A stretch of DNA of 64,000 bases, taken from the NCBI GenBank assembly GCA_947168815.1, contig CAMVNG010000003.1, forward strand, positions 8,478-72,477. Reading direction: 5' to 3'. Positions 1-54,726 of the stretch are shown one piece after another. How positions within the stretch are numbered: position 1 is the first letter of the stretch; every line of letters begins with the position of its first letter. The DNA comes from an uncultured bacterium (GTDB lineage Bacteria > Patescibacteriota > Gracilibacteria > Absconditabacterales > Absconditicoccaceae). The position numbers were made by a program, and so were the translations under genes. The notes under the pieces were generated by a model. It saw only the letters and a list, made by a program, of their open reading frames with translations, did not search any database and was not told the origin of the DNA.

Positions 1-16
1 TAATTATGAAATAAAA

Positions 17-520
17 CTATATAATTTCTATTTTTCATTCATTTTTTAAATGTTTTTCTGGTATTTCTCAATTTTGTTTTCAAAGAGAAATAAGAGCAAA
101 AGGAACAATATTAGGGGAAAAACTAAAATGATGAGCGATTGTTTTCATAACATTTTCATGTGGATACACTCAAAGTCGAACAGTTCAGATTTCTTTTTCA
201 TGTGCAGCGAGAAGAATGTTTTGGATGCTAGCTCACATATCTTGTGGAATAAATTCTTCACTTTTTGTCATATCTTTATCATAACAAGCTAATATAACTC
301 CTCATGCATTTGGAAGCATTTTTCAAAAATCCATTATTTCTCATAAGAAATTACGGTCTTCTTGCTTAGAAATGATATAATATTTCCATGCTTGTTGATT
401 ATGAGCAGATGGTGCATAAAAACCATAAGAAATAATTTCTATTAGTAGTTTGGAATCAAATTTCTCATCGGTATAATTCCTAACAGATCTACGTGTTGTA
501 ATTGCTTTTAGAGTATCCAT
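17..520 (-). CDS. nitroreductase family protein (167 aa, table 25)
   Basis: One uninterrupted frame from ATG 518-520 to TAG 17-19 only if TGA is sense. MDTLKAITTRRSVRNYT and YAPSAHNQQAW match the nitroreductase RRSxRxY and APSxxNxQxW signatures. Confidence 0.8.
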
Positions 521-551
521 AAGAAAAGGAAAAAAAGTAAAAAAAGTAAAA

Positions 552-1142
552 TTATTTTTTTATTCTACACACACTATAACAGATTTTTTCTTTCCCTCAA
601 ACTAAAACATAGTAAACTACATCTTTATATTTAAAAAAAAGTTCACTAGAAAAAGAAAATTTATCTAAAACTATATTTTTTGGAGTATAACCAATAAGTT
701 TGAAATTTTTAGTCTCTTCTAAGCATCTAAGATCTAATGCTTTTAAAAGAGCTTCTTCTGCTGTTCGAATGGTATAGAAAGCCTTCCAATCTTTTTTCAT
801 TCATAAAATAGTGTAGTCTTTATCTGTATAATAGTCTAACATAATATTAGATCTTTCTCAAATTACTTCTAAATCAATTCATATTTTTCCACTGTCTACC
901 ATAAGGAAAATTAAATCTCAACTATAGGATGTCGAGAAATATTCGTTGTTGTATTGATGTTTTTGTCATATTGTTAGAAGTTGTTTTTCGTCATCAATAG
1001 AAAAATAATCTTTAAGATATCAATATTTAATTAGTTTTTGTTCTTTATAGGGGCCAACTAATTTTTTTAAAAAATCAGGAGAAAAACGTTCTTTTATTCA
1101 TTCAAATAGTGTATTATCTACTTTTTCAAGAACGATTCGCAT
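552..1142 (-). CDS. hypothetical protein (196 aa)
   Basis: Extends track ORF 597..800 in both directions through several TGA codons, from ATG 1140-1142 to TAA 552-554. No family recognised. Confidence 0.55.
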
Positions 1143-6124: not shown

Positions 6125-6147
6125 CTCACTTGCAAATTATACGCTAT

Positions 6148-6225: not shown

Positions 6226-6275
6226 TGTAAAAATTTGCCACATTTAAGGCATTAAATGCCTTATATAGACTAATA

Positions 6276-6305: not shown

Positions 6306-6407
6306 AATAAAAATTTTTTTATAAAAAGAGAAAATACAGTTGAGGAATTGTTGATTTTATTAAAAAAATAAATATGTCTATTATATTTATTTCAGTATTT
6401 ATACGTA

Positions 6408-7199: not shown

Positions 7200-7351
7200 T
7201 TCTGAAAAATATCTAAAATATTAATTATAGACTATCATATAAGATAATTTATTAAGAATAATTATGGTATGTATTCTATTTTTTACTGGAATTTTTCTTA
7301 TAAATGATTAACTAAGAATCAGAGAAATTTAAACTTTTATTTTGACTGTTT

Positions 7352-8869: not shown

Positions 8870-8953
8870 AAAACCAAAAGATTATTACAATAAAAATCAT
8901 TTCTATAAAGAGAATAGCAGATAAAACGTGTCTAAAAATTAATAAAAAATTTT

Positions 8954-9000
8954 AGATGATTTTTTTATAAAATTGAGCCAAAAAAAGAAAAAAATCATCT
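8954..9000 (+). terminator. long hairpin (13-bp perfect arms, 21-nt loop) downstream of the TPR gene
   Basis: AGATGATTTTTTT (8954-8966) pairs with AAAAAAATCATCT (8988-9000) and is followed by TTATTT. Confidence 0.4.
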
Positions 9001-9009
9001 TTATTTAAC

Positions 9010-9037
9010 TTGAATTCATCAACCAAATAACTATTAT
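9010..9037 (+). promoter_or_regulatory. sigma70-like promoter (TTGAAT-N16-TATTAT) upstream of secE
   Basis: -35 at 9010-9015 and -10 at 9032-9037. ATG at 9070. Confidence 0.45.
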
Positions 9038-9069
9038 ATTTCTGATTTTATTTTTTGCTGTTCGCGAAA

Positions 9070-9426
9070 ATGTTGGATTTTATTTACGACAGTTTAGATA
9101 CTGTTAAAAAATTAAAGTTTCCTACAGTTAAGCAAATCGCTCAACTTACAGGTGCTATATTTGGTTTAGTTATTGCTGCATGACTTTATTTTATTTTAGC
9201 AGATACTATCTTTTCTGAAGGATATAAGATTTTTTATTCAGCTATGACAGATGGTGCAACTACTGCAGTTGTAGAAGACGAGAATACTGAAACTACTGAT
9301 GATACTATTTTACCAGTGTCAGAGACTCCAGTTAGCTTCGAAAATGTAGAAGTTGAGGAAACTCCAGTTGCTGAAGAAACATCTGATGCTGTTGAAGTAG
9401 AAAATGTAGAAGAAGTATCAGAATAA
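9070..9426 (+). CDS. secE: preprotein translocase subunit SecE with acidic C-terminal extension
   Basis: Lies directly upstream of nusG, the conserved position. It has a single TM helix IAQLTGAIFGLVIAAGLYFILA. Track ORF 9244..9426 is the in-frame polyacidic tail. Confidence 0.7.
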
Positions 9427-9452
9427 TTTTATCTCTTTCTTTAAAATAAAAT

Positions 9453-10031
9453 ATGCAAAGAGACAATACAAGTGAAATAAAAAAACAAATAGAGGACAGA
9501 AATTATAAATGGTATGTCCTAAGTGTAACATCATGACAAGAAGCTCTTGTTATTGAAAATCTTCAAGAGAGAGTAAATAAACAAGGTTTAGCAGATGATG
9601 TTGTAGATTATCTCTGTCCTATGGTAAGTGAAGCTTCAATTAAAAAAGGAGAAAAAATTGTAAAGCAAAAGAAGCTTTATCCAGGATATGTGTTCTTTAA
9701 ATCAAGAATGAATGATAAAATCTGGTACGTGGTAAGAAATACTCCAGGGGTAAGGCTTATTGTTGGAGCTGAGACAAAGCCAATTCCACTTTCAGACCAG
9801 GAATATCAACAAATTATGGATCAAATCGCTCAATCACAAGAAAGATCTGAGTTGAAGGTTCCTTATAAAGTTGGTGATATAGTTCTTTTGAAACAATGAG
9901 ATTTCAAAGGAATGAAATGAAATATCAAAGAGGTAGATTCAGAGAAGGGTGTAGTTGTTGTAAGTGTAGAAATGCTCTGAAGACTAACTCCAGTAGCTGT
10001 TGCTATTGACCAAATCGAGCTAGCAAGTTAG
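9453..10031 (+). CDS. nusG: transcription termination/antitermination factor NusG
   Basis: NGN domain (YKWYVLSVTSGQE) and KOW motif (VGDIVLLKQGDFKGMKGNIKEV). Track ORF 9621..9899 is in frame. TAG at 10029-10031. Confidence 0.9.
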
Positions 10032-10053
10032 TCTTTATATTTAACCATTTCGC

Positions 10054-10764
10054 ATGGATAGAGAAAAAAAACTTGTTACCTTATCAATGGTTGTTCTCTT
10101 CTTTAGTTTGATAGTAGTATATTCATTATTTTATCAAGTTAAGGGAGAAGAAATCCTTGGAAGTCTTCGTTCTCTAAAAGCTTCTAGTAGTGTACAAGAG
10201 CAAGAAATTAGTTCTACTCAAACACTAACGCAAGAAAACTTTTCAGAAGGAAATCAGCCAGAAAGAAGACAATTCCATGAAAACCGTCCTCAATTAGAAT
10301 GAGATCAATTCTCAGATATTTCAGCTTGAATTGATGCACAACAAGCTGAAGGAGAAGTAAAGCAGACCGCTTCAGCTGCACGTACTTCTATAGGTGATGG
10401 TCCTACAATTTTATCAGGTGCTGATTTATATTTTGGTGCTGTTGATAGTATTGAGCTTCTTGGACTTGAACCAGAATATGTTTTGAAAGATTATAAAGGA
10501 TTTTATTACGCAAAATTTGAAGAAGAGCCTTATTTGAAACCAACGGTTCAGAAGTTATGATGAAATATCTATACAATAACTTCAGATGCGGAGTTAGTTA
10601 AGAATCAACTCTTTGGTGATAAAGTTAGCTTTATAAATCTTCCAGAATATAAAAATAAATTAGTAGTGATGCTTTTAACAGTGAATGGTCAATATTGGCT
10701 TATTCAAATGAGTTATGAAAAGTATCATCATGCTAAGAGTTATTTAAAAGATTTATTTATTTAA
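10054..10764 (+). CDS. hypothetical membrane-anchored protein (236 aa)
   Basis: Track ORF 10054..10302 extends through TGA codons to TAA 10762-10764. It has an N-terminal TM helix LVTLSMVVLFFSLIVVYSLF. No family recognised. Confidence 0.6.
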
Positions 10765-10778
10765 AATTTGTTGTTAAA

Positions 10779-11219
10779 ATGGCAAAAGTACAAAAAGTAT
10801 TAAACATTGAAGTACCTGCTGGAAAAGCAACTCCAACACCTCCTCTTGGACCTATGCTTGGAGCTAACGGTGTAAATATCGGTCAATTTACTAAAGAATT
10901 TAATGAAAAGACTTCTGATTTAATGAGACAATTTGGTGGAATCGAAGTAAAGGTGAAGGTAAAATTAACAGTATATGTCGACAGAACTTTCGCAATGGAA
11001 ATCGGAACACCTGTAACATCAGGTCTTATTAAATGGAGAATTAATCAAAATTTAGGATCTGGAGAACCAAATAAAAAGAAGGTTTGAAAATTGACTAAGG
11101 CTGACTTAGAAGCCATCTATGATTTGAAAAAATCAGATCTTAATGCTAACACTCCTGAACAAGGATACAGAATCATTGCAGGAACTGCTAGAAATATGGG
11201 AGTTGATGTAGAATTATAA
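10779..11219 (+). CDS. rplK: 50S ribosomal protein L11
   Basis: Track ORF 10779..11087 continues through TGA 11085-11087 (NKKKV-G-KLTKADLEAI) to TAA 11217-11219. It carries the PPLGPMLG motif. Confidence 0.95.
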
Positions 11220-11225
11220 TATCAC

Positions 11226-11263
11226 TCGTGGGAGGCTATGACATATAGTCGCTCGAACCACTT
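11226..11263 (+). promoter_or_regulatory. GC-rich structured element between rplK and rplA
   Basis: Outer GTGG/CCAC pairing encloses a GGCTAT-GACAT-ATAGTC hairpin and is followed by TTTTATT. This could be an L1-binding mimic or an attenuator. Confidence 0.3.
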
Positions 11264-11285
11264 TTATTCTTATTAATTAATTATT

Positions 11286-11963
11286 ATGAGCCACGGAAAA
11301 AAGTACGTAGAAGCTAAAAAGCTTGTTGATAAATCAAAGGCTTATCCTCTAGCTGAGGCAGTTGAGCTTCTTAAAAAAGTTAATTATGCTAAATTTGATG
11401 CTGGTGTTGAGGTAGCAATTAAAACTAATGCTAATCCAAAATACAATGATCAAATGCTTAGAGCAACAACTATTCTTCCTCACGGAACAGGAAAGACAAA
11501 GAAAGTTGCTGTATTTACTACTGATGATAAAGTAGAAGAAGCTAAAAAAGCTGGTGCAGATATTGCTGGACATGATAGTCTTCTTGCTAGTATTAAAGAT
11601 GGAAAAACAGATTTTGATGTTTTGATTACATCACCTGATCTTATTAGAGAATTAGCTCCAGTTGCTAAACAACTTGGACCTAAAGGATTGATGCCATCTC
11701 CAAAAGCTGGAACTGTTGCTGTAAATATTGCACAAGCAGTAGAGGAAACAAAGAAGGGTAAGATTGAGTTTAGATTAGATAAAACTGGAAATATTCACTG
11801 TTTGGTTGGTAAATTATCATTTGATAATGCTAAATTAGTTGAAAATGTTGAAGGATTGATGAAAGCTATTGAAGAAAATAAACCAACTGGAGTTAAAGGA
11901 AAGTTGGTGAAGAAAATTGTTATAGCTTCAACAATGTCTCCAGGAATCCAAATTGAATACTAA
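11286..11963 (+). CDS. rplA: 50S ribosomal protein L1
   Basis: Intact 225-aa ORF in the track. L1 family features are present (LPHGTGK, MPSPKAGTV). It contains no TGA codon. Confidence 0.97.
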   Translation: MSHGKKYVEAKKLVDKSKAYPLAEAVELLKKVNYAKFDAGVEVAIKTNANPKYNDQMLRATTILPHGTGKTKKVAVFTTDDKVEEAKKAGADIAGHDSLLASIKDGKTDFDVLITSPDLIRELAPVAKQLGPKGLMPSPKAGTVAVNIAQAVEETKKGKIEFRLDKTGNIHCLVGKLSFDNAKLVENVEGLMKAIEENKPTGVKGKLVKKIVIASTMSPGIQIEY

Positions 11964-11988
11964 TACTTATGCTAAAATTTTATAGAGG

Positions 11989-12019
11989 AACTAGGCAAGA
12001 ATGCCTAGTTTTTCTTTTT
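11989..12019 (+). terminator. rho-independent terminator after rplA
   Basis: Perfect 9-bp stem AACTAGGCA/TGCCTAGTT with a 4-nt loop, followed by TTTCTTTTTC. Confidence 0.8.
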
Positions 12020-12052
12020 CAAAGAGAGTAAGGATTAAAATTCATCGATTTT

Positions 12053-12081
12053 TTGACTTTTTTTCGATTTACAAGTATAAT
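12053..12081 (+). promoter_or_regulatory. consensus sigma70 promoter (TTGACT-N17-TATAAT)
   Basis: -35 at 12053-12058 and -10 at 12076-12081, 38 nt upstream of ATG 12119. Confidence 0.65.
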
Positions 12082-12118
12082 TGTAATAAGGAATTTTATA
12101 TCTACTTGATTTGATAAA

Positions 12119-14746
12119 ATGCCAGGGAACAGTCCAGAAGGTAAAACAAGTGTAGAATTATGAGGAGTTAAATTGGAACAAGAAGAGCTAAAAAATCAAC
12201 TCAGAGCCCAACTTAATGCAGAACAAGCTGAGATAGCTTTTGATGCAGTTCGAAAAAAACTTTTGGAAATGGAAGCCCAACAATCAAAAGAAGATATTGC
12301 TAATCTTCAAAGACAGGTATTGGAAGAACATAAAGTTGATATAAAATTAGAAAATAATAATTGAGTAATCGTAATTAATCTGATAAATAACAATAATCAT
12401 ATAAATATTTCGGTGACTCCAGATGCAGTTCCAGAACAACAAAGATATAATGTAGTAGAAAGCAGAATTGTAATAAATGAAGATCAAGGTCCAGCGACTG
12501 TTCAAAGAGTGGCTGCTCCACAATCTGTACGCCAAACAACAGTTCAATGAACAGAAGATGCTACAAGAGTTTCAGAATGAACAAGACAGGAAACACCAGT
12601 TGCTTCTGTAGATCAAACAACTAGTCAGCAACAGCAGAGAACATCTGCAGAGCAAACATCACCAGCTGATCAAAGACAAGAAACAGTTCAAACAGCAACT
12701 CAAGAACAAACTTGAAATTCTCCAGAAACAACAGTTCAAACACAATCAGTTCCTGAAAGTCCTGAACAAAGATATGATGAATTAAAAGATATTTTAACAT
12801 CATTAAATAGAGAACTTGTTCCTGATGCTTCATGAAATATTGTACTTACAGGAGCTCAAATGCAAAAATTAAACCGTATTTCTTTATTACGTGCTCCTTT
12901 TTTCTGAGCATGAATGCCTAAAGCACTTGCAGATGCTCTCGGAAGAAGCGATATTATAACAGCAGAAGATTTAAAAAATGCAAAAACACTAAGAGCTAAA
13001 AGAAGAGAAATAGAACAGAAACTGAAAGATGAAAAAAAATATAATAAGGAGCTAGGAAAGTTACTAGATACTTACATTGATTATCTTAATAAAAAAAATA
13101 GCACAAATTATACCTTAAACAAAGCAGCTGCATTAGGAAAGATTAATGAAGAATTGGAGAGAGGTACTTATATTAATCAGCCATTGGCTTTTATGCCAGA
13201 GGTTTCTCCTCTTATCTTAAATATTTGTCAAAAATGAAATAGAGAAAGACTTGCTTCAAATAAAGCAATTCAAGTAATGAATAATTGAAAAACAATAAAT
13301 GTTTTCCCTGAAGCTGCAGGATCTGCTTGAGCAGCAGCAGGGTATTTAGCAACATGTTGAGCAGGATGATATGCAAATATTTTTGAAAAATTTCTTACTG
13401 AAAATACAAAAATGTCCCAATGACAGGCTAGAAATATGATAAATACAGTAGGAACTTTCGGATTAGTAGCTTGAGTTGTGTGAATTGGTTATTGGTTGTT
13501 TACAAAAAAAGAGTGAGGTGAGAGAAAATTTAGTTTCCCATCACTATGAAAAATAGCAGCTGTTATTTGAATTCCTATGGCATTGAATTACGGATCTCAA
13601 ATGACAACAGGAAGCTCATTCTTAGAAAATTTAAATAAATGGTGGACGACGGGTGAATTTCCATGGAGTTCTCCAGAAAATTTAACATCAAATGAACAGT
13701 TAGTATCCCAACAAGTGATGTGACAATTTGTTTTATTATGAGTTCCTAAAAAAATTATAAAACAATATGGTTCATTTAACTCTTCTGGTAAAATGACAAA
13801 GATTGATTTGGGATGATTGAGAACATGATATCTAGAAGTATTGCAAAATGATGCCAATACAACAAGTGAACAAAAAGCAAGGATTTGAGCACAGATTGCA
13901 GCAATAGAAAATATTTCTAGGTCAGATTCTTCAAAGACATTATTATATAATTATATTGAACGTTTAGGAATTACAAAGTCTGATTTAAATTCTGATCCAG
14001 ATTGATATCTTGATTCACGTTTATGAGAAGCTGCGGAAAAATATAATAAAATAGACGCATATTTAAAAGATAGATGATTATTAATTGATAACAATAAAAA
14101 AGATAAAGTAATTGATACTCTATTTAAAGAAAAAGAGCTCAACGATGAAGTATTTGATAAATTAAAAGAGGAGTGATACTTTATGCCAAACCCTGATGAT
14201 AATAGATATAAGGAAATAGCTAAATTAAATGTTGCGTCAGAAAAGAAGATAAAAATAGCAGAAGCATTTGCAAGTCTTGCATCAGAATGAACAAAATATT
14301 GACAAATGAGCTTGAAAGTAGATGGTTGAAAAGTTAAACTTACTTCAAAAGTAGATATTGAGTGAGCTGTTAAAGAAAATACAATAGATATCAATCCGGA
14401 TTTAACAATTGATGGATTTACAGATGCTGGATGACAAACATTAAAATTTAAGGATGAAAAAGAATGGTTAAGAACAGGTTTACTTGTTAATTATATTAAG
14501 GCAAAAACCTGGGAAAGGACGACAAAATTTGAAAATAGGAATGCTCCATTTGAGTTGAGTTGATGACTAAAATTTCGAGAATCGGTTCAATTTGTGGAAC
14601 ATGATAAAAAAGAAACAGTGCTTTCCAATGCTCCATTTATAGGTGATATGGCAAGTAATCATCCTACAATAGAAAAAGATAAGAATAGAGAGTTCTTTAG
14701 AGACTATCTTAATAAACTTTGGGTGGCAGACCATCCTTCATCATAG
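12119..14746 (+). CDS. large hypothetical membrane protein (875 aa)
   Basis: The frame is supported by track ORFs 12173..12364 and 12914..13237. It has a coiled-coil N-terminus, a Q/T-rich linker, and 3-4 hydrophobic helices including the Gly-zipper GSAGAAAGYLATCGAGGYA. A C-terminal domain of about 400 aa follows. TAG at 14744-14746. Confidence 0.7.
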
Positions 14747-23287: not shown

Positions 23288-24241
23288 ATGAAATTATCAG
23301 TTGACCCATCTCAAAGATATGCCAAAATGAGAGCACATACAGCGACACATCTTCTACATGCTGAATTAGCTCAATTTTTCCCAGATACTAAGCAGGCATG
23401 ATCATTGGTGGACTCAGATCTATTAAGATTTGATTTTTATGCAGATAGATTATTAAACGAAGAGGAACTTGCACTAATCGAAAAAAGAGTAAATGAAATT
23501 ATCTATATGGCATGTGAGGTAAAAATAGAAGAGATGTGAATCGAAGATGCAGGTAAGTTGGGTGCAAAAATGTTTTTTGAAGAAAAATATTGAGATGTTG
23601 TTCGTGTAGTTCAAGTATTTAATAATGAAGATGCCTGTGAACAAGATAAGGCATATTTTGCTTCTCGTTGAGAAAAACTTTCAATTGAACTTTGTTGAGG
23701 TACTCATGTAAAAAATACAAAAGATATTTGAGCATTTACAATTATTTCACAAGAAGCTGTTGCTTCAGGAATTAAAAGGCTTACAGCTTTAACTGGGCCA
23801 AGAGTAATTGAAAAAATAGAAAATCAATCTAGTCTTTTATCTCAGCTTGTTGATTTATACGAGGTAAAGTCATCAGCACAGCTTATTGAAAAAACTCAAA
23901 AACTTCTTAAGGACTTTTGAGAATTAAAGGCTCAAGTAGAATCATTAGAAGCTAAATCCATAACTTCTTTCCTAGAAAATGGTGAAAAAAAATCAAATGA
24001 GGATTTTGATATAATTATGAAAGTTCCTACAGATATTAATTTTAAGACACTTTGATTCCAAGCAAAACAATATTTTGGAGGAAAGAATGTTCTTTTAGCT
24101 ACAATAGCTGGTAATTATATTCTTTTCACGGTTGCTGGAAATTCAGCAAAAACATTAGCACAAAAACTTGGTTTAAAGGGGGGATGAAATGATCAACAAG
24201 TACAATGAAGAGATGAAAAAGTAGTTGCCTTTTTATGATAA
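23288..24241 (+). CDS. alaX: AlaX-L-like protein (AlaRS editing domain plus C-Ala/DHHA1-like domain, no synthetase core)
   Basis: HTATHLLHAEL (HxxxH) and CGGTHV (CxxxH) zinc motifs. The C-terminus is GLKGGGNDQQVQG. An in-frame TAA lies 72 nt upstream of the ATG with no alternative ATG between them. Confidence 0.8.
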
Positions 24242-32103: not shown

Positions 32104-32874
32104 TTATGAAAGGATAATATTTATGTTATTTCGATTTAATTCTTCAAGTCTTTTTCATTTTAAATCATCAGGAATGTTATATTCATTATTTCCTTTTTTT
32201 TCTAACATCTTTTCTATTCTTCATAAAGTCTTTCTGCTATATGGAGAGTAAAGATTTAAAAAGTTTTCAAGTTTTTTTTGTTCTACATTTTCCGGAGAAT
32301 CTTTTTTTATAAATCTAACAAGACAACTTTTTACTTTAGGTGCAGGAGAAAAACATTTAGCAGGGACCATTTTTACATATTCTATAGTATAACATCGATT
32401 TACAAGCCATCGAAGGTATGATTTTTTATTAGCATCTGATTTAATTTTTTCTCAAACTTCATTCTGAATCATAAAAAATCATCCAAGAAATTTTGGAGTT
32501 TCCTTCCAAAAAAGATGTTTAAAAATCGGAGAGGTGATGTAATATGGAAGATTTCAAACAACAATTGCTTCTTCCTCAAGGATATGACTCTGACTAAGAA
32601 TAGTTGAAATATCCTGCTCAAGAACATCTCAGAATATGATATGATTTTCTTCCAATCATATGGTATTAAGATGCTCTTTTAATGTAGTATCTTTTTCAAT
32701 TACATAAAATGAGGGAGATATTTTATAAATTTTTTTTGTAATAGCTCCTTTTCAAGGACCAATTTCAATGAGAGCCTTTGCTCAGGTCTTAACATAAAGA
32801 TGCTCTATAGAATTCGCTATAGTCCTAATGATTTGAATATCTTTTAAAAAATTTTGTCAGAGATAGGTAGACAT
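32104..32874 (-). CDS. rsmA: 16S rRNA (adenine1518/1519-N6)-dimethyltransferase
   Basis: LGQNFL start, SAM motif IEIGPGKGAIT and the NLPYYITSPI motif. Confidence 0.9.
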
Positions 32875-33785
32875 TAGTTTTCAGTTGATAAAATTCAATA
32901 TCGTAGTGCGTTCTCTTGGTTAACATTTGAGGATATTTGTTTTTTAACATTAATCCAAGCTTGTGCTCAAGCACTATTATGTTGTTCTGCATATTCTTTA
33001 ATAAGCACAGTTTGAAATATATCAAGAAATCAAGCTTCATCTAATTTTTTCAAACTATCAATTTTTTTAAACCAATCTCCATTCTCCATCATAAGTGGTA
33101 GTAACCCTTTCATTAATTCAAAGATCTCAGGATTCTCTTTTACTTTTTTATATATTTCATGGAATGTTCATGGTTTTCACATAGAAAGTTTTATTAGTAA
33201 TTCCTTTTCATCATTTTTAATATCTGAAAAATTATCGTTAATATATTTAGCCATTTCCGAATCAGAGAGAGGAGAAAATCTTATAACCATTGCTCTTGAA
33301 AGAATTGTAGGAAGAATTCAGCTTTCATGTTCAGCTGTCGCAAAAAGGAATCTATTTGGAAGCGGCTCTTCACATGTTTTTAAGAAGGCATTCATAGAAG
33401 CTTGTGTCATTCTTTGAATGTTCTCTATAAGAAGAATTTTCTTTCAACTAAAAGAGGATTGTTGTAACCAACTATTTATTTCTCTAACTCACTTATTTTC
33501 ATAGATTGTATTATCGAATAGAGGTATTGTTTTTTGTTTATCTGGTGTTTCTATCTGAATAGAATGATATTTTCCAAGTTCTTTTGTGCAGTCTTTCATC
33601 CAAAAAAGATCAGTTATAGAATATTCTCATAAGATTATATCTGAATAAGAACGTAGAAAAGATGTCTTTCCAATACCTTCTGGACCTATAATAATTAAAA
33701 AAACTGGTCTATTACTCGACTCGTTTTTTTCAATATATGTTTTAAATTGAGATTTAGCTACCTCATTTCAAATGAGCGTTTCCAT
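32874..33785 (-). CDS. holB: DNA polymerase III delta' subunit
   Basis: P-loop GPEGIGKTS, NAFLKTCEEP, ILSRAMVIRF. The C-terminal frame was verified codon by codon. Its stop overlaps the rsmA start (TAATG). Confidence 0.8.
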
Positions 33786-33850
33786 ATTTCTACACTTAAA
33801 AAAAGATACAAAGATACCTAAAATATAGTTTTTGATTAAAGAAAATCAAA

Positions 33851-33876
33851 TAAAAAACCTGATGTTAATCAGGTCT
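33851..33876 (-). terminator. rho-independent terminator (minus strand)
   Basis: ACCTGAT/ATCAGGT stem with a 4-nt loop. The T-run on the minus strand corresponds to the plus-strand A-run at 33852-33857. Confidence 0.6.
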
Positions 33877-33883
33877 TTATTAT

Positions 33884-35245
33884 TTAAAATCTTAAATTAC
33901 TTGGAAGTTGACTTTCAAAAATTTCTCGGCTCTCAGTTATAGGAGTATTTTCAACATAATTAATCCAATTCTTTAATGTATTTAATTGGGTTTCTTTTGT
34001 TGGAGGGAAGTGATAGTGTTTCATTCAATTTATTACTAAGTCAATCTGTGCGAGAACTGATTTAGCAGAAGGATCTAAAGAAATATTAACATTACATACA
34101 TCAGCAACCGCCTTCACTCTCCAAAGAATATTTCTATAAGCAGAAGCTATTTTGTTAGAATCTCAACTCTCTTTAGCAAGATATAAATCTTTCACATCTC
34201 ACATTAAGAAACTAGAATTGAGTGCAGCAGTAATCTGGCTTAATTGATTTTCCGTTGGAACAATTTTTTCATCAGCATTATAAGCTAAATCATTACTAAT
34301 ATTTTCTTCAATTTCACCTGGAATTGCAGAGTTCGAAGTCAAGAAATCATCGTTTTCTTTAATAAGTGTTTCAATATCTGTAACCTCAGGAGTCTTTTCA
34401 TTTAAATCTCATTCGATAGTATCTTCTTTAGGAAGAGTTGTGGTATAAGTAAGATTTCATTTACTTGTCAAAGCGGTTGCAAATTCTTTTATATCTGTAA
34501 TATGAGTAATGTCGTTTGCCTCCATTGTTAAAAGTTTTTCAGGTTCGAGTGTTATCTCTTCTTCTTGTTTGGTCTTATCTTTGATAAGTAATGATGATCA
34601 TTTATTTTCTAGTTCTGTTCTGTGATCTACTTTCGTTAATGTTAATGCAACTTTTTCATCTTTATTTGTTTCAATAGTCATTTCATCAGTCTCGACTTGT
34701 AGAATATCGACACTTTCATCACTATCAACCTTTAAGAAATCTCATTCCATCAAAAACAGATGATATTTTCATTCACTAACTTTGCTGATTGTAAATTTCG
34801 CAGGTCACTGTATTTCAGTCTTTATATTATCATTGATATTAAAAATGATTTTTGCATTTTCCTTTAATGTGATTAAATCTCAATCAAAAAGAACTGAATT
34901 TTGGAAGGTCTTACCTTCTTTTTCTATGATGTAATCACCATTAATTTCTAGTACTTCAGCAATATAATCAGCGCTTACAACATGTGATCATGTGGGATTC
35001 TTCTCAGCCCAAAAGGCTCTATACTCTATAAGTTTAGGAAAATCTCAAAAATAAATTCATAAAAAAGAAAAAATAAGAACAAAGGAAAGAAAAGCATAAA
35101 TCTTTCTTGTTCTTAATATTTTAGTCCTCTCAAGATTATGAGAAACCCTAGACCTTTCTTCACAGATCCTTTGATACAGAGCGATTTTCCTCTCGTCTGA
35201 AAGTTTATTGTTACCTTCTTGATAAAAATATGTTTCTAATTTCAT
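33884..35245 (-). CDS. hypothetical single-pass membrane protein (453 aa)
   Basis: Track ORF 35057..35245 extends through TGA codons to TAA 33884-33886. The TM helix IYAFLSFVLIFSFLGIYF follows a 45-aa cytoplasmic head. Confidence 0.6.
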
Positions 35246-35770: not shown

Positions 35771-35878
35771 CTAGTCGCAAAAATAATAAATTAAATGGTA
35801 GTCTTTTGATAGACTTGCCTCGGAGTATATGATTAATTTTTTATATTACAAATCTTTTTAGAATAATTCTGTAAAAAT

Positions 35879-35906
35879 TTGCTTTACATTTTTTTCTGAA
35901 TATAAT
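35879..35906 (+). promoter_or_regulatory. sigma70-like promoter (TTGCTT-N16-TATAAT)
   Basis: -35 at 35879-35884 and -10 at 35901-35906. ATG at 35940. Confidence 0.5.
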
Positions 35907-35939
35907 AAATGTAGTGTTTATATCCTACGAAATATCACA

Positions 35940-37889
35940 ATGGCTGATATGAATCCAACAGCAGCAGCGAATACAGCGAACACCGTAACTCCTCAAAATG
36001 AAGCGGAGAAGAAGCCAATGTTTTGAGGTTCTCAAGAAGTGTTTGATAATTTGGAAAAATTTGAAAAAATATCAAACCCAACAAGTAATGATTTTAACTT
36101 TGATTTCTGAGATTTACAATCTCCAGTAATTGCTGAAGGTCAAAGTACACAAGAAGAACAATGATTACAACAAAATGAAATTGCTGCTGAAATTCCAGTT
36201 CAATCATCGGCATTATCAGATTTTAATTTTGATGATGTTGTTAATTCCGTTGCTGAATGAGAAACTTCTACAGTTGAAAACTCTCAAGAAGCGTGAACTA
36301 TTGAAAATCAAGAATGAGATAGTATTCCTAGTACTGAAGTTCCTTTCGAACAGCCAAATGTAGAAGAGAATCCAACAAGTGATATTCAAAATATGAATTT
36401 AGAAATTCCATGAGAAGATAAAGGGGCTAGAACAGAGGATACTAATCTAGAGACAGCACCCATTGATTTAAATATTGGTGATTTACCAGCAAGTGAAGAA
36501 AAGAATGAGAATAATGAAGAAGAGCAACAATCTGAAACATCAGCAATAGAAGAATCAAATGATTTTGAGCTAGATATTCCAGCTCAAGGACCTTCTTTTG
36601 AAGAAGATAAAGAAGATAAACCAAATCAAACAGAGGAAAACATACCTTCATTTGATTTCGATTTTCCATGAACATGAACTGATGTAGTGAATAATGAAGA
36701 AAAAAATTGAGAAAATATAGATTTTGCTCCAGTGGATGATGAAAAAAATGATGGTAACAATGAAATGTTAGATAATCAAGAAGAGGAGGAAAAACAAGCA
36801 GATCCTGTTTTAGAGGTATCATTAGATGATGAAGACACAAAAGAATCAGCTGAAACAGAAGAAAATAAGGAAGAAGAGTCAATAGAAAAAGAGATTGATA
36901 CCCAAGAAACCACTGATGAAGAAAATAAAGAAAATGACGAAGATGATGAGGAAGAAGATGAAAGTAATGAGGATGAAGAGGATACTGATGAAGAGGAAGA
37001 CGAAGAAGATGAGGATGAAAACGATGATGAGGAAGAAGCTGAAAATAAAGATGATGAACAAGAAGATGACAATGATGAGGAAGAAGATGAGGAAAGTGAT
37101 GAAGATGAAGAAGACGCAGATGAAGATGAACAAGAAGATGATAATAATGAATTGGAAAATGATAATAAACTTGCAGATGAACAAAATGATGATTTATGAG
37201 AAGAAGTAGTAGAAACAGAAGCAAAAGAGGAGAATTCAGAAGATGAACAAGAAATCGATGAAGAAGAAAAGATACAAAAGATAGAAGAAACTGATGATGA
37301 ATCAGAAGAAAATGATGAAGAAGGTGAAGAAAATCAAACTAAAGAAGAGACTATAGAAGAACAGTCTGCAGAAGAAAAAGCTGCATTAAATATGGAGGAA
37401 TATGATGCAGAAAATTTGAGCTCATTGATGAAACAATATAGAGAACTATTAAATCTTGCAAAGACAATGATTTGATTAGAACAAAAAATCAATAAAGACG
37501 AAACAATAGCTCAAACTGAAATTATCGGAAATAATACAGAAAAAAATATGATTCGTTATTTGATTTCAATTGAATGAGAAGAGAATCAATCATTAATTAT
37601 TATGAGAGTTGAAAAAGATTATGCCCGTGATGAAGAGTCTGAACATAAACTAGAATTTACAAGTGAAGAGGGTGACAAGAATTTGATTATAAAAGTGGAT
37701 GATTTCAAACTATATGAAGAAATTTTGGACTTACAAGATCCAGTTAAACAGTTACAAGTTTGAGATAAAATGAAAAAATTTAATTTCTTATTTCAATGAA
37801 GATTATCGGAATTAGAAGAAAAAATGGAAGAAATTAAGGAAATGAAAGAAAAAATGAGAGCGTTCCGTGATATATTTAGAAATTTCTAA
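35940..37889 (+). CDS. hyper-acidic hypothetical protein (649 aa)
   Basis: Track ORF 36732..37199 is in frame with ATG 35940. TAA at 37887-37889. A structured-looking C-terminal domain of about 170 aa follows the D/E block. Confidence 0.7.
36732..37199 (+). repeat. GAA/GAT-rich low-complexity coding block (poly-D/E)
   Basis: Translation is almost entirely D, E, N and K. It spawns four spurious overlapping ORFs in other frames and on the other strand in the track. Confidence 0.85.
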
Positions 37890-48054: not shown

Positions 48055-48084
48055 AATTTTGAAATGAAGAAAAGTGGCAAAAAA

Positions 48085-48113
48085 TTGACAAAATTATGAG
48101 AAAGCGGTATAAT
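48085..48113 (+). promoter_or_regulatory. consensus sigma70 promoter (TTGACA-N17-TATAAT)
   Basis: -35 at 48085-48090 and -10 at 48108-48113. This argues that the downstream ATG 48150 is the start, not ATG 48096. Confidence 0.6.
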
Positions 48114-48149
48114 AAGAAAGAGAAGAATTTTTATATTTCGAATGAGGGC

Positions 48150-49952
48150 ATGGTAGTATCAGATGATAATTCAGGATTGTTGTGAGAAAATTCACTAGCA
48201 GACCAACTTCAAGATTGAGCACAAGAACAATCAGACTATCCTTCTTATGACCAAAACAGGACTGATAGCTGAAGAACAATGCTTTTTTCTGATGTTGAAA
48301 AGCCTGAAGATCAAAATGCAACTCAGAATGTGATGCAAGAAGTTCCTCTTCAAGATTCCAATGCTGCGCAAGCTCCAGTGAATTCAATAAGTGATGATGC
48401 TGTTGATTCTGAATGGGAGGCTATTCAACCACAAGTTCAAGCTCAATGACCAATGAGGATAACAGAAGAAGCATTAGAAGAGGCAAATAAACAACAAGAA
48501 CAAGAAGCTCAAGCTGCAGCAGCTGCTGCAATGGCAGAACTTCAAGAAGATCCTGAAGCATCAACAGAACAAACACCGGAAGCAGTCTTAGATGAAGCAC
48601 TTTCAGAACCATCTTTTGAAGAGGGAAATAATGTTTTAGATGATTCTAAAGAAACGCTTGGAGGATTCCGTTTTAATGATGAACCTTATAAAGTTAAAAG
48701 ATATAATACATGATTCTTAATTTTCAGTTTAGGAATAATCCTTTTTTGATGAATATCATATGTTCTATATGTATTTTATCAATATCTAACCTTAAAATCA
48801 GAACCAACAGCTTATGATAATACACAAGTAGATACATTGGCTGAATATTATGATGACTATGGACAAAAAATCTGATTATTTAACAATGAACCTTTTGAAA
48901 ATATTGATCTTACACAAGGAAATGGTCAAGTAGATACATTACTTAGAGATCCAGGATTAAACTTTGTTCAAAAAAGAGAAGATTTGCAATTTGCTTTAAC
49001 AAAACTTTGAGATCAAATTATTTGAATTAGGAATGAAACAAAGCTTTTAAGAGAAAAAATGAATAGAGATGGATTCTTTCCGCAAGAATTGGTTGATATT
49101 CTAAATACAGATAATGCAGTTAGTTCAATACAAAGAAGTCTTAATTCTCTAGAAGTCGTAAAGTTCTCAAGTGCGATAAGAGTATTCTCATTAATGGATG
49201 ATATTGTCAAAGATCTAGCAGATTCATTTAATTATACAAAGTCAGATATTAAGAAGAGATTAAATGACTTAATGGAAAGATGAGAAACAGATGTAGAACT
49301 ATATTTGAATGATTGTTATAATAATCCATATGAGCCAGAAGATTGTAGTAAAATCAACGATTTTGATATGTATTATAAGAAAATTAAAGAGGATAAGAAT
49401 TTTGATACAGTTTTCTTTAAAAATCTTATGAAGTTTATAAACAACCAGCTTGAATATAATAATATGCCAAGTTTCTCTATTACTTTCAACAGCTTTGACT
49501 GACAAAGTAATAGTATCAGTTTCTCAGTTGAGGTAAATACAACAATTGAAGATGAAACAGCTCTTATTCAACAAGGTGTTAAGAGTCCACATATCTTTAT
49601 TATTTCAGAGTTGATTAAATTGTTAAAACAATCAACATTTATTGTAGGTAAAGCTATTGATGCAAAAGATATTAAAGTGGTATCAAAGCCAATTACAGTA
49701 GCTGGTAGACAATTTAATGTAAATAATTCAGTAAATACGTTTACATTACCAATACAAAAAACAACAGAAAGAGAAATCTTCGACTTTATCGATACCTATA
49801 CAACAACAGTTCAAACAGGTTCATCAGTTTCAGATATGATTTCTTCTCTTTTGAATGACTCAGGAAATTTAGTACAAGAAGAGGAGGAAGATGAAAGTGT
49901 TGTTGAAGAGGACAATTCTAATGAGGGAGGTGGTGAAGTTATAGAGGAATAA
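48150..49952 (+). CDS. hypothetical single-pass membrane protein (600 aa; alternative start 48096)
   Basis: Track ORFs 48453..48713, 49059..49283, 49305..49502 and 49611..49952 all share this frame. TM helix FLIFSLGIILFGGISYVLYVF. The C-terminus is acidic. Confidence 0.65.
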
Positions 49953-49974
49953 AATAAATGAAAATAAAAATATA

Positions 49975-50005
49975 GAGCTGAGTAGTATTACTCAGCTTTT
50001 TCTTT
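49975..50005 (+). terminator. rho-independent terminator
   Basis: Perfect 9-bp stem AGCTGAGTA/TACTCAGCT with a 4-nt loop, followed by TTTTCTTTT. Confidence 0.8.
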
Positions 50006-50015
50006 TAGATAATGA

Positions 50016-50043
50016 CTTGATTGAGAAAAAAAGAATCGTATAT
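50016..50043 (+). promoter_or_regulatory. sigma70-like promoter (TTGATT-N16-TATATC)
   Basis: -35 at 50016-50021 and -10 at 50038-50043. ATG at 50081. Confidence 0.4.
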
Positions 50044-50080
50044 CTAATTTAATTTTACTTTAAAAAGGACAAGGAATAGT

Positions 50081-50617
50081 ATGAAATTAATTGCGTGATT
50101 ATGAAATCCTTGAGAAAAGTATAAGACTACAAGGCATAATGTTTGATTTCGTTTCATAGATGCTTGGGTAGATAATAAATGACTATGAATATGGAAGTAT
50201 GAGGGAAAATATAAATCAGAGATTATTCAAACTGAGCTAAATTGAGAAAAACTTATTATATGTAAACCTCAAACATTTATGAATCTTTCTTGAGAAGCTG
50301 TTGCTCCAATAGCAAGATTTTATAAAATTGAACCAAGTAATATTTTAATTATTCATGATGAGATAGATTTTGTTACAGCAAGAATTGCATTAAAATTTTG
50401 ATGAAGCCCAGCATGACATAATGGATTGAAAAGTATTATAGAAAAATTATGAACAAAAGATTTTTGGAGATTAAGAATATGAGTAGATAGACCTGCAACT
50501 TCAAAACAAGTGGTAGATCGAGTGCTTTCTTCATTCAAACCAGAAGAGAAAAAAAATCTTATAGAAAAAGAGGATGAAATCTTTAATCTTATAGAAGAAT
50601 TTATAAAGAATAAATAA
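50081..50617 (+). CDS. pth: peptidyl-tRNA hydrolase
   Basis: LIAGLGNPG, the catalytic His in TTRHNVGF, GGSPAGHNGLKS. 178 aa. Confidence 0.9.
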
Positions 50618-50638
50618 TTTACTTGTTATCTTAGTTTT

Positions 50639-51577
50639 ATGTATATCCCTTTACATGGTCATTCAACATTTTCCTTTCTGGAATCTATTGGAAAACCTAA
50701 AGATATAATAAAAAAAGCGAAAGAATTAGGATTCCCTGCTGTTGCATTGACAGATCTCAATGTTATTTATGGGCTAATTCAACATTATCAAGCTGCAAAT
50801 GCAGAGGAGATAAAACCTATTTTATGAGTAGAAATATGATTTGTTTTAGATATTAACAATATTTCAAATACAAAGACAATTTGATCTCTTTGTTTACTAG
50901 CAAAAGATGATCAATGATATCTTAATCTCTTGAAAATAGTTACTTATGCTTCACAAGAATGAATTGAGCGTAGACCAAAAATAGATTTTAATTGTTTGGA
51001 AAAGTATAAAGAAGGACTAATTTGTTTTATGTGATGAAAAGAATCTCGAATTTGAGCAATGTTGGCAAACTCTGAGTCAGAAGATAAAATCAGAGAAATG
51101 TATGATATGCTTCGTAAATGTATGGGAGAAGAAAATTGCTTTTTTGAAATAATTGCACAAGATGAATCTAAGAATCCCCAAATTAAAACAGTGAATTCAC
51201 TAGTACTAAAAATGGCAAAAGATACAAATACTCCATGTTTCGTGAGTAATATATATATGTATCCAACACCAAAAGATAAAATTACTCATGAATTAGCAAT
51301 GGCCATCAAAGACAATATGACAATTTATGATCCTAATCATAGGGTGTTAACAACAGAAAATCATATGATGGTGGAAGATGAAATAAGAACTATTTGTAAA
51401 AATAATGGATATAGTGAAGAACAAATAAATAATTGGATTGATGAAACAGAAACAATAGCAGATCGCTGTAATGCAAGTATAGAAATGTGACAGAAACTAT
51501 TCCCTAAATATGAAGTTGAACCAGAGGTAATAGAGATATATGAAAAATATAAAAATGATTTAATTATAGAAGATTAA
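50639..51577 (+). CDS. dnaE: DNA polymerase III alpha subunit, N-terminal PHP domain only (312 aa fragment)
   Basis: MYIPLHGHSTFSFLESIG is the canonical DnaE/PHP start. Track ORFs 50639..50827 and 51059..51490 are in frame. It ends at TAA 51575-51577, about where the PHP domain ends. No polymerase core follows. Confidence 0.8.
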
Positions 51578-51615
51578 AAAAACCTTGAATTAGACCTTCA
51601 AGGTTCTTTTTTTTT
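51576..51615. terminator. bidirectional rho-independent terminator shared by the dnaE and clpB fragments
   Basis: A-run, then a perfect 9-bp stem AACCTTGAA/TTCAAGGTT with a 7-nt loop, then CTTTTTTTTT. Confidence 0.8.
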
Positions 51616-52918
51616 ATTGTTCTTCATCTCTAATAAGAGCTTGTTTCTCTATTTCTAATTTGTTGATTTCTTTTTCAAGTTGAAGCACATCTTCTGGCAT
51701 TGTTGCTAGATTCATTTTTACACTTGCAGCAGCTTCATCAAGAAGATCAATAGCTTTATCCGGGAGTTTACGATCTGCTATGTATCTATTAGAAAGGTCA
51801 ACAGCAGCAACAACAGCATCATCAGTTATTTTTACTCAGTGATGGGTTTCATAAGCTTTTTTGATACCACGAAGAATGGCTAAAGCATCTTCTCTACTTG
51901 GTTCGTTAACCATAACAGGTTGGAATCTTCTTTCGAGTGCAGCATCTTTTTCAATATATAAGCGGTATTCATTAATAGTTGTAGCTCAAATAACTCTAAT
52001 AGTACCTCTAGCAAGTGCTGGTTTTAACATATTACCCATATCCATAGATCATTCAGTCTTTCAAGCTCAAACAACCATATGAATTTCATCGATGAAAAGA
52101 ATTATTTTTCAGTCTGATTTTTCAACTTCTTTAAGAATAGCCTTTAATCTTTCTTCAAAATCTCATCTATATTTACTTCATGCCATTAATGATCACATAT
52201 CAAGTTCAATAATCCTTTTATCTTTTAGAAGATCAGGAACTTCTCCTTTGATGATTTCTTGAGCAAGAAGTTCGATGATAGCAGTCTTACCAACTCATGG
52301 TTCTCATACAAGAACTGGGTTGTTTTTCGTCCTACGAGAAAGAATTTGGAGTACTCTTCTGAGTTCATCGTCCCTTCAAATGACAGGGTCTAGCTTTCCT
52401 TGTTCTGCAAGAAGGGTAATGTCTTTTCCATATTTTGAAAGTACTTCCAAGCTTACTTCAGGATCATTACTTTCAACTTTTTCTCATTTTCTCATTGAAA
52501 TAATGGTATTATAACACGTTTTATAATCAATATTCAATTTTTCTAACATGTTTTTTACCTTGTTATTTCATTTAAGTATTGAAAGGAAAAAATGCTCTGT
52601 GGTTATATAACTATCTCCCATTTCTTTCATAATTTTTTCACTATCTTCTAATATCTTGTTAAGTTCAGAACTGAGAGCTATTTGAGAACTTCATTGAATT
52701 CTAGGTAATGCATCAATGAGTAATAATGTTTCAGCTTTGATTTGTTCTTTATTAGCGTTAAGCTTTCTTAAAATGGCAGGAAGATATCAATCATTTTGTT
52801 CAATCATAGCATAAAAAAGATGCTCAGTACTAATCTGAGAATTTTCTCTTGAAGAACAAATACTGTTAGCTTCTTGAATGGCTTCACTAGCCTTTATAGT
52901 TAGTTTATTAAAGTTCAT
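51614..52918 (-). CDS. clpB: ClpB-like chaperone, N-domain plus first AAA+ module only (434 aa fragment)
   Basis: [17 protein letters not shown] start, Walker A GEPGVGKT, Walker B ILFIDEIH. It ends inside the M-domain coiled coil ([21 protein letters not shown]) at TAA 51614-51616. No NBD2 is present. Confidence 0.85.
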
Positions 52919-53013
52919 GATGATTTTATTAAAAATATAAAATAGCACATATTTATATTTGGTGCTATTATAGATAAAAATATATAAAATGCAATAAATT
53001 TTATTAATTGATA

Positions 53014-54726
53014 TTATTTTTTCATAAATTCTCAAAACAAAGAATCTCTACTTTTTTGCTTAAGAACTTCAATTTGTTGAGATTTATTTTTTAGAAATTT
53101 TTCAACATCTAATCCAAATTCTTCAAGAATAATAGAAGTATGATCCGCTCAAATGTAATGTGGCATAATAACATAATCCATTCATTTTTCATAGAGCTTT
53201 ATTGCTTCTTCAACGTGTGTTGCAACACAAATAACAATAAGATTAGGATTCTTTTCTTTTATTAGTCCAATAAGTGCAAAATTCACATCAGTATTTGCAA
53301 TAGTGGAAATAATCATTTTAGTTCATGAAAGATTAATGTCTTGTAAGAATTCAAGATCTAAAGCATCTCAATAAAGACAATTAATTCATTGAGTATTTAA
53401 ATGATTAATTACAGCAGGATGTTCGTCAACAATTAAAACGCTATATTTTTTATTTTGAAAATGTTTATAGAGTTCTCATCAAAGTCTACCGTATCAAAAA
53501 AGGATAATATCATTGGGAGTTCAAAGCTTTTCTTTACTCTTTTTATGAATAGCTCAAGGAATATATTTTTGAAATTTCCCTAATTTTTTGAAGAGCCAAA
53601 GATTATAAGTTGTGGTATATCAAGATATAAGAATACTTAAAATACCGATAATAGTAATCAAAGTTATAAGGGAAGAATCAGTGATGATTCAACTTGTCAT
53701 ACCCATGGTGATCAAAATAAAGGAGAATTCACTCATAGGTATCTCTGTGACTCAGGTTAAAAAGTTATTCTTTTTTACATGTCACATCAATTTTAAAAGA
53801 AACATTATAATAAGAGGCTTTAGAATCACAACTAAGAACATTCCAGCAGCAATAAATCCCCAATTAATAGATCCATTAAATGATAAATTAGCTCCTAAAA
53901 GAATGAAATAAATAACAATAAAGAAGTCTTTTAGTACTTTCATTCTGCTTGTTATTTCATATCTATATGGAGAAGCTGCAAGAGTCATTCATGCAAATAA
54001 TGCTCATGTTTCCATTCAGAATCATAGCATGTCAAAACATGTTGATACAATAAAACATCGACCTATTGAAAATAATAGCAAAAATTCTTGAGACTTTGCT
54101 ATTTCTTTTGTGATAGGCGGAAGTAAATATTTAGAAGAAATAAATAATCCTCAAATAATTCCTATAATTTTAATGAGAAGTATTCATACAGCATGTAGAA
54201 CACTTTCACCTCAAAGAGCAGAAAATGTAGCAACAATAGCCATAAATAGCATTACGAGAATATCTTGAGTAACTAAGATTCAAATACAAAGTCTTCAATA
54301 AGTGGAATCTAAATCATCTTTATCTCATAGTAACTTTAATACTACGATAGTTGAACTTAATGATGTCGCTATACCAATATATAGGGAAGTCATGACATCA
54401 AATCAGAAGAGAAGAGAAACCAGAAATCAAGCTATGGTACTTCCAACAACTTGAAGAATTCAGACTAAAACGGTTTTGGCTCATAATCCTTTAATTGTTG
54501 CAGGTGAAAGTTCTATTCAGATGATAAAAAGTAGGAAAACAATTCCTACTTCAGAAAAAGTATTTAAAAATTCATATCTTGCAAAAAAATTAGGGAATAC
54601 GAAAGCAATAATAGTACCAGCCAAAATATAGGCAATTGTTGTCGGCTGTTTTAAAACTTTCATTATTCAAAGAGAAAGAAGAACTACTCAAAAAATGAGA
54701 GAGAAAGATAAAAAAAACTGATCCAT
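53014..54726 (-). CDS. CPA2-family cation/proton antiporter with C-terminal RCK/TrkA-N domain
   Basis: Start LKQPTTIAYILAGTII, a multi-helix Na/H-exchanger core, then the Rossmann motif ILFGYGRLGGEL. 570 aa. Confidence 0.85.

Follow-up and report, generated by a model that had tools for sequence, protein, structure and literature searches.

Separately encoded halves of ClpB and a stand-alone DnaE-type PHP domain in rumen Absconditabacterales

The ClpB/Hsp104 proteins of Escherichia coli, Thermus thermophilus, and Mycobacterium tuberculosis carry the N-terminal domain, the two nucleotide-binding domains (NBD1 and NBD2), and the M-domain on a single polypeptide from which the hexamer is built. 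Reportedly, the NBD1-M and the NBD2 part of T. thermophilus ClpB, when expressed separately, come together again and form an active protein (Beinker et al. 2005, J Biol Chem); in this laboratory-split protein the cut lies after the M-domain. The DNA polymerase DnaE is found in two distant pieces in cyanobacteria, where the cut is inside the polymerase core and the halves are ligated by intein fragments, and in two surveys of the C-family polymerases (PMC3919608, PMC12926913) the DnaE sequences in pieces are those split by inteins or fragmented by frameshifts, with no other kind mentioned. Other lineage-wide fissions of multidomain housekeeping genes in episymbionts with small genomes are the split genes of Nanoarchaeum equitans and the aminoacyl-tRNA synthetases of SR1 RAAC1; for SR1, fragmented copies of the Val- and Ala-tRNA synthetases and an interrupted Ile-tRNA synthetase have been reported (Kantor et al. 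2013, PMC3812714). In this study we analyzed a stretch of 64,000 nucleotides from an uncultured bacterium (assembly GCA_947168815.1, contig CAMVNG010000003.1, positions 8,478–72,477; in the following the window). It contains two convergent genes, one coding for a DnaE-type PHP domain only and the other, termed ClpB-N, coding for the N-terminal half of ClpB. Thus, the kind of event, the fission of housekeeping genes in reduced genomes, is known, whereas the genes concerned are different from those of N. equitans and RAAC1: the literature searched did not yield any account of a ClpB split in nature or of a DnaE split between the PHP domain and the core, and the papers on SR1, Vampirococcus, and the Candidate Phyla Radiation that were searched do not mention fissions of clpB or dnaE. 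We consider it likely that both open reading frames (ORFs) are complete and functional genes which arose by old gene fissions.

The reading of the window depends on the genetic code. The G+C content is 29.6%, and coding is dense once TGA is taken as a sense codon. With table 11 both frames are interrupted by TGA, nine times in the PHP ORF and 16 times in the ClpB ORF, and the region resembles debris. TGA codons are found at invariant glycines, for example, in the Walker A motif GEPGVGKT of ClpB and in the motif GLGNPG of the peptidyl-tRNA hydrolase pth, and therefore the organism uses code 25 (TGA = Gly) and belongs to the SR1/Absconditabacterales–Gracilibacteria group. All ORF coordinates given here are valid only under this code. 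The window is conspecific with the rumen metagenome-assembled genome GCA_017526685.1, as it is 99.4% identical over 10.5 kb to contig JAFXQZ010000009.1 of this assembly, and by that alignment it corresponds approximately to positions 53,848–117,847 of the contig. The source is a rumen member of the Absconditabacterales (SR1) which decodes TGA as glycine. Many public proteins of this lineage have been translated with code 4 and have W at glycine positions (e.g., P0004 and P0010), others have been chopped into pieces by code 11, and both kinds of prediction distort family alignments and pattern searches.

When compared with solved structures, ClpB-N aligns to residues 1–434/435 of the 848–858 residues of ClpB (E = 3e-134). 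In the protein, NBD1 comes after a double Clp_N domain and has both Walker motifs (A and B), the pore-loop tyrosine, the arginine fingers, and the motif KYRGDFEER; the catalytic motifs of NBD1 are all intact. More than 120 protein clusters have a length of 434–435 aa, and ClpB-N of the human oral strain HOT-345 ends with the same residue as ClpB-N of the window. The ratio of nonsynonymous to synonymous substitution rates (dN/dS) relative to a second species (L197) is 0.03 for ClpB-N, 0.14 for the PHP gene, and 0.19 for the neighboring pth, and these values are rough because dS is near saturation. The preliminary description of the region, which was made from the sequence alone, had the dnaE frame stop at TAA 51575–51577 after 312 aa with a PHP domain only, and the clpB frame stop after 434 aa within the M-domain with NBD2 missing from the ORF. 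Under code 25 the first statement is exact according to Pfam and to the alignment, the second is in agreement with the alignment to ClpB, and the Walker motifs, which had been called intact, are visible in the code-25 translation. On the contrary, the statement that both genes end prematurely does not hold, as the comparison with relatives proposed in the same description showed that both genes keep their length and end point and that both stops are conserved native ends.

No NBD2 motif is present in the 64-kb window. The missing half was found by scanning metagenome contigs for an NBD2 Walker A motif whose first glycine is encoded by TGA, a spelling which is usable only by code-25 organisms; the same pattern had no match in viral contigs. 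Two populations were obtained: full-length ClpB/ClpC genes of 850–930 codons and 17 ORFs of ∼429 aa which start with M[ATV]K[LQ]TK and align to residues 437/439–854 of E. coli ClpB. The latter ORFs, termed ClpB-C, have their own ATG and comprise the M-domain helices L2–L4, NBD2, and the D2-small domain. Synteny places ClpB-C outside of the window. At one ClpB-C locus (L103) there is a secE-nusG-rplK-rplA block syntenic with positions 9025–12101 of the window, and at three others (L112, L127, and L141) ClpB-C is located ∼1.4 kb from the homologue of the leftmost window gene. In addition, two contigs which match the left part of the window continue into ClpB-C. One of these (L200) is the above-mentioned JAFXQZ010000009.1 with a length of 187.6 kb, which is 99.4% identical over positions 1–10529 of the window, and the other (L201) is 99.5% identical. 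In window coordinates ClpB-C is found at about −2696 to −1407 on the plus strand, that is, 1.4 kb past the left edge, and ClpB-N and ClpB-C are ∼54 kb apart on opposite strands. The conspecific ClpB-C matches the Pfam families AAA_2 (1.4e-71) and ClpB_D2-small (4.9e-24) and has the motifs GPTGVGKT, ILFDEVEKAH, GYVGYEEGG, and GARPLKR.

Taken together, ClpB-N and ClpB-C are colinear with E. coli ClpB (49% identity) and with a full-length code-25 ClpB. The junction has four extra residues (MAKL) at residue 435 of the E. coli protein, so that the cut falls between LEQQALMKESDE and ASKKRLDML. We take residue 435 to be the turn between the M-domain helices L1 and L2, and thus the fission is clean and falls into a loop on the surface, where motif 1 has its tip. 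The position of the cut is therefore different from that in the laboratory-split ClpB. The four-helix M-domain, which is of the ClpB type and not of the short ClpC type, is complete only across the two chains and is colinear with residues 401–530 of E. coli ClpB. The domains and their order are the same as in ClpB/Hsp104, and the two proteins agree with this family in every sequence feature except that they are two chains instead of one. Full-length ClpB is present in the BD1-5 Gracilibacteria, another group with code 25. Code-25 organisms also have the closest unsplit relatives, with an N-terminal half 73% identical to ClpB-N, and among the lineages sampled the split ClpB was seen only in animal-associated SR1. 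The existence of ClpB-C and its exact complementarity to ClpB-N show that clpB is naturally split.

A Clp protein of 873 aa encoded at locus L002 was considered as the unsplit ancestor of ClpB and was ruled out, as its short, UVR-like linker identifies it as a paralogue of the ClpC type. In Absconditabacterales lineages other than that of the window, full-length ClpC-type ATPases with such a linker and a divergent N-domain are encoded just upstream of the PHP-only gene and on the same strand at L002 (6647–9289) and L021 (5209–7812).

One flank of ClpB-C is formed by the gene of a XerC/D-like tyrosine recombinase and then recJ, and the other flank by an uncharacterised gene and then a UDG gene. 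On L200 the recombinase gene (13309–14220, minus strand; HAFRHTF...GH...RYLH) lies ∼2.8–3.7 kb left of the window start, directly upstream of ClpB-C and on the same strand; recJ is oriented divergently to the recombinase gene. Two independent rumen contigs (L080, positions 1–417, and L103, positions 2–379) end within the same convergent ORF, ∼400 bp beyond the ClpB-C 3′ end. Assemblies may break here at a repeat or at a point which varies between strains.

The PHP protein has a single Pfam match, PF02811 (5.8e-38), and aligns to residues 6–284 of E. coli DnaE in the comparison with solved structures. An AlphaFold2 (AF2) model of the protein (pLDDT 82, pTM 0.81) reaches a TM score of 0.80 and a root mean square deviation of 2.4 Å when superimposed on the Taq Pol III alpha PHP domain, compared with TM scores of at most 0.46 for the free PHP phosphoesterases. 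The stop codon follows ∼20 residues after the conserved LFPxY motif (here LFPKY), at the boundary between PHP and palm. Palm, thumb, and fingers, the catalytic aspartates (PDIDxDF), the (HhH)2 domain, and the clamp-binding motif are not on this chain.

The same short protein is found throughout the order. All 120 homologues among the matches listed consist of the PHP domain only; most of them have 310–313 aa, the identity goes down to 41%, and the named sources include Absconditabacterales, Absconditicoccaceae, and SR1. When each GTDB species was represented by one genome, 71 PHP loci were obtained, and the complete copies share the end residue whatever gene is located downstream. Of 74 PHP ORFs in 73 loci, 64 have a length of 310–314 aa, and the complete ones all stop at TAA or TAG with a median of five in-frame TGA codons. 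In a profile search of 1.84 billion representatives ∼65 PHP-only proteins (clusters at 50% identity, most with ∼300–315 aa) scored 208–507 bits, whereas full-length DnaE proteins of 1,000–1,500 aa begin only at 205 bits. Hence, the PHP-only gene stands alone throughout the order Absconditabacterales. Both the PHP gene and ClpB-N are conserved and are under purifying selection.

The sequence of the PHP protein might give a hint to its role. Several metal ligands are replaced: TDH is changed to TDL or TDY, the histidine before LxLLA to S or N, and the histidine of ExxxH to Q. In addition, the final DxH metal-ligand motif is variable, and the nine-residue metal-binding set of the PHP proofreading exonucleases of the M. 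tuberculosis/Thermus type is incomplete. This makes an autonomous exonuclease unlikely and a structural subunit the better explanation. E. coli DnaE1, which has an inactive PHP domain, likewise has several canonical metal ligands replaced, and this similarity points to a structural role and perhaps to an interaction with the exonuclease. The difference to E. coli DnaE1 is that PHP is here a separate polypeptide, the core probably being encoded by another gene. In contrast to the cyanobacterial split DnaE, the PHP protein ends in native DnaE sequence. No intein was found at its C-terminus, as there is no room for an N-intein, no Cys/Ser junction motif, and no extra domain, and thus any reassembly with a core would be non-covalent.

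No DnaE core motif is present in the 64-kb window, the loci of 71 species contain no core at a distance of up to 10 kb from the PHP gene, and none was found within about 7–10 kb of ClpB-C. A TGA-as-glycine DNA pattern for the DnaE motif YGFNKSH, which was run on viral contigs only, gave no match. By placing contigs of four metagenomes on dnaE of the BD1-5 locus L171 we found a metagenome contig of 116 kb which carries the palm active-site region (ERFLNP..MPDIDxDF) and, at a distance of 623 nt, another conserved block. The depths of this contig in the four runs (32.8, 16, 6.7, and 12.3) are close to those of the window contig in the same runs (33.9, 14–15, 6.4–7.2, and 10.4), and this co-abundance fits a core gene of the same genome. 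The BD1-5 Gracilibacteria have a full-length DnaE of ∼1,300 aa with integral PHP (L171 and most of the 120 matches listed below), which suggests that the fission of dnaE is specific to the Absconditabacterales branch. Other parts of the Pol III holoenzyme are present in the genome, as positions 32874–33896 (minus strand) of the window encode a clamp-loader subunit similar to DNA polymerase III delta-prime (DNA_pol3_delta2, 6.7e-20). We suggest that dnaE is naturally split as well, which is probable, and that a PHP-less core is encoded elsewhere. Thus, the preliminary description, which had offered natural splitting with the other halves elsewhere as one of four explanations, was right for clpB, as ClpB-C is present in conspecifics, and is probably right for dnaE. 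Of the halves it had proposed to search for, the gene with the ClpB NBD2 was found and the DnaE core gene was not recovered; the divergent adjacency which had been considered was not observed, as no DnaE core lies within about 7–10 kb of ClpB-C.

Nevertheless, several points weigh against two fission-derived genes. ClpB-C was seen in conspecific strains (99.4% identity) and not on the window's own contig. The dN/dS values suffer from the near saturation of dS, and the contigs from rumen RNA-seq assemblies which lie inside both the PHP and the ClpB-N gene are weak evidence for expression, as DNA carry-over is possible. With respect to DnaE, only the BD1-5 locus L171 was recovered when 2.19 Mb of SR1/Gracilibacteria loci were searched by phmmer for the cores of E. 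coli and L171. A protein search with the L171 core likewise listed 120 matches which are all BD1-5 DnaE of ∼1,050–1,340 aa; nearly all of these carry PHP, and the six without it are probably 5′-truncated gene calls. The contig with the palm motif is tied to the window by depth alone, and the N-terminus of its palm-motif protein lies outside of the sequence seen. Finally, a full-length DnaE or PolC paralogue may be present elsewhere in the SR1 genome.

The last point leads to the alternative that survives best, namely that the 312-aa protein is an independent paralogue, for example, a nuclease, a phosphoesterase, or a regulator, in a genome which also encodes a complete DnaE or PolC with PHP, so that dnaE is not split at all. 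Stand-alone PHP proteins are indeed known in other families (ranks 24–32 of the structure comparison), and the SR1 DnaE core was not recovered in the fetched loci, nor was the N-terminus of the palm-motif sequence seen. We regard this alternative as rather unlikely, since fold and sequence are of the DnaE type and clearly different from the free PHP enzymes, and since the protein terminates precisely at the PHP/palm boundary after LFPxY. Moreover, the loss of key metal ligands argues against an autonomous hydrolase, and the library scan separates the protein sharply from full-length DnaE, with the ∼65 closest representatives being all short.

A second alternative, also raised in the preliminary description, is that the junction was created by one inversion or other rearrangement which cut both genes, with the other halves lying head to head elsewhere. 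In its favor, two N-terminal halves are positioned tail to tail, and full-length clpB and dnaE are in fact divergent neighbors in the BD1-5 contig L171 (clpB at 6777–9353 on the minus strand and dnaE at 10123–14061 on the plus strand, the latter with 61 in-frame TGA = Gly). However, ClpB-C is flanked by the recombinase gene and recJ and by the uncharacterised gene and the UDG gene and has no DnaE core nearby, and other BD1-5 dnaE loci do not have a neighboring clpB. PHP-only genes are found order-wide without adjoining ClpB-N; among the loci sampled the adjacency is restricted to one small lineage, that is, the window species and the second species (L197/L198), and in HOT-345 the PHP gene and ClpB-N are ∼239 kb apart. 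Furthermore, the two fissions have different phylogenetic depths: the PHP-only gene is order-wide, whereas ClpB is split only in the sampled animal-associated lineages and other code-25 organisms retain a full-length ClpB with a 73% identical N-terminal half. Thus, a single inversion cannot explain both fissions, and we consider this alternative very improbable. An ancestral linkage of dnaE and clpB in Gracilibacteria was also considered and was dropped, as two other BD1-5 dnaE loci have aspS upstream. In HOT-345, aspS is located upstream of ClpB-N, and ClpB-C was not found within ∼10 kb of ClpB-N.

Even less credible is the idea that both genes are decaying paralogues, that is, pseudogene remnants of full-length working copies elsewhere. 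Both proteins are without domains which are essential in the canonical enzymes, but decay is hardly compatible with the same length and stop in 71 species for PHP and in >120 clusters for ClpB-N, with the low dN/dS of both genes, with the intact NBD1 motifs, with the existence of a precisely complementary ClpB-C, and with RNA contigs inside both genes.

A chimeric contig or a misassembly at the hairpin between the two stops can practically be dismissed: hairpins and homopolymer runs can mislead assemblers, but 85–96% of the 31-letter words sampled from the junction region are present in 19 ruminant-gut metagenome runs, contigs of 19.6, 4.0, 2.4, and 0.27 kb from four studies cross the junction with positions 49900–53300 being spanned without any joint, and the same gene pair is present in a second species in two further assemblies (L197 and L198). 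The junction is real, and its sole difference between strains is a length variation of 1–2 nt in the T-run at 51607 (four metagenomes).

The features of the locus are summarized in Table 1. The preliminary description of the spacer, 36 bp between the stops with a perfect 9-bp hairpin flanked by A- and T-runs, was confirmed. The hairpin (51581–51605) has the sequence AACCTTGAA-TTAGACC-TTCAAGGTT, scores as a terminator on both strands, and has a fold energy z of −2.7; eight terminator-like sites are found in the region versus 1.1 expected. With a stable, G+C-containing hairpin and a U-tract on both strands it is predicted to be a bidirectional intrinsic terminator and does not differ in any respect from other such terminators between convergent genes, which are an ordinary feature. 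The RNA contigs, whose coverage is sparse, do not cross the spacer. A second hairpin which scores on both strands (49974–49999) is located between an ORF of 631 codons (48057–49952) and pth, and hairpins of this kind apparently mark the ends of genes routinely in this genome. The second species, whose ClpB-N is 92% identical, has the same order of pth and PHP gene facing ClpB-N, and its spacer is 14 nt long and has no hairpin. The order of pth and PHP gene is also conserved in closer relatives (L004–L009, L017, and L022). As the hairpin is absent in the closest relative with the same gene arrangement, it is incidental. The tail-to-tail position and the hairpin are those of an ordinary convergent gene pair and have no causal link to the fissions.

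Table 1. Coordinates (window positions, genetic code 25) of the two convergent genes and of the features used to place them
Feature	Position	Strand	Description
Stand-alone DnaE-type PHP gene	50639..51577	+	312 aa, stop TAA 51575-51577, Pfam PHP only
Convergent intergenic spacer, 36 nt	51578..51613		Hairpin stem 51581-51589 / 51597-51605, A-run before, T-run after
ClpB-N gene: N-domain, NBD1, M-domain helix L1	51614..52918	-	434 aa; Clp_N, AAA, AAA_lid_9
pth (peptidyl-tRNA hydrolase), upstream neighbor of the PHP gene	50081..50617	+	Pfam PF01195
Left edge of the window, nitroreductase gene 17-520	1..559	-	Synteny anchor placing ClpB-C outside the window

Two further observations concern other parts of the window. 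The preliminary description had counted an AlaX-like module at 23288–24241 together with the dnaE and clpB frames as three partial multidomain enzymes. For the module this is in agreement with Pfam, which finds only the tRNA_SAD editing domain in this ORF (plus strand, 317 aa), and the ORF matches the fragmented SR1 alanyl-tRNA synthetase of Kantor et al. 2013 (PMC3812714); the dnaE and clpB frames are probably complete genes and not broken ones. In addition, two large ORFs (35862–37889 and the already mentioned 48057–49952, both on the plus strand) have long, extremely acidic low-complexity stretches with runs of D, E, and N.

How the separate chains might work together can be outlined as follows. 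For ClpB, the two halves would reassemble non-covalently, which is plausible given the reported reassembly of engineered ClpB fragments. Helix L1 of ClpB-N and helix L2 of ClpB-C might re-form the antiparallel coiled coil of motif 1 and would act as a zipper between the chains, whereas NBD1 and NBD2 would stack in the hexamer to give a normal two-tier ClpB. For DnaE, we suggest that the PHP protein serves as a structural subunit and that the polymerase core to which it belongs is encoded elsewhere; it might also bind an exonuclease, as the inactive PHP domain of E. coli does. We lean toward the view that such non-covalent heteromers are used order-wide, that is, a Pol III alpha with a free PHP subunit and, in the animal-associated lineages, a two-chain ClpB zipped by motif 1.

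These results have consequences for the annotation of SR1/Absconditabacterales genomes. The two ORFs should not be flagged as truncated genes, as pseudogenes, or as misassemblies, and completeness estimates and metabolic calls which expect a full-length DnaE and ClpB misjudge this lineage. The natural cut at the tip of motif 1 provides a ready system to study the communication of NBD1 with NBD2 when no covalent link is present and to what extent a break in the regulatory coiled coil is tolerated. A free PHP subunit, if it exists, would mean that the contact between PHP and the polymerase core can be sustained between separate chains, and would raise the question of what is gained by it, for example, separate regulation or stoichiometry. 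If both proposals are true, the lineage would be a natural experiment on which covalent links are dispensable in both machines. Together with the reported fragments of SR1 aminoacyl-tRNA synthetases, the split clpB and the probably split dnaE add to a pattern of gene fission in a recoded lineage with reduced genomes.

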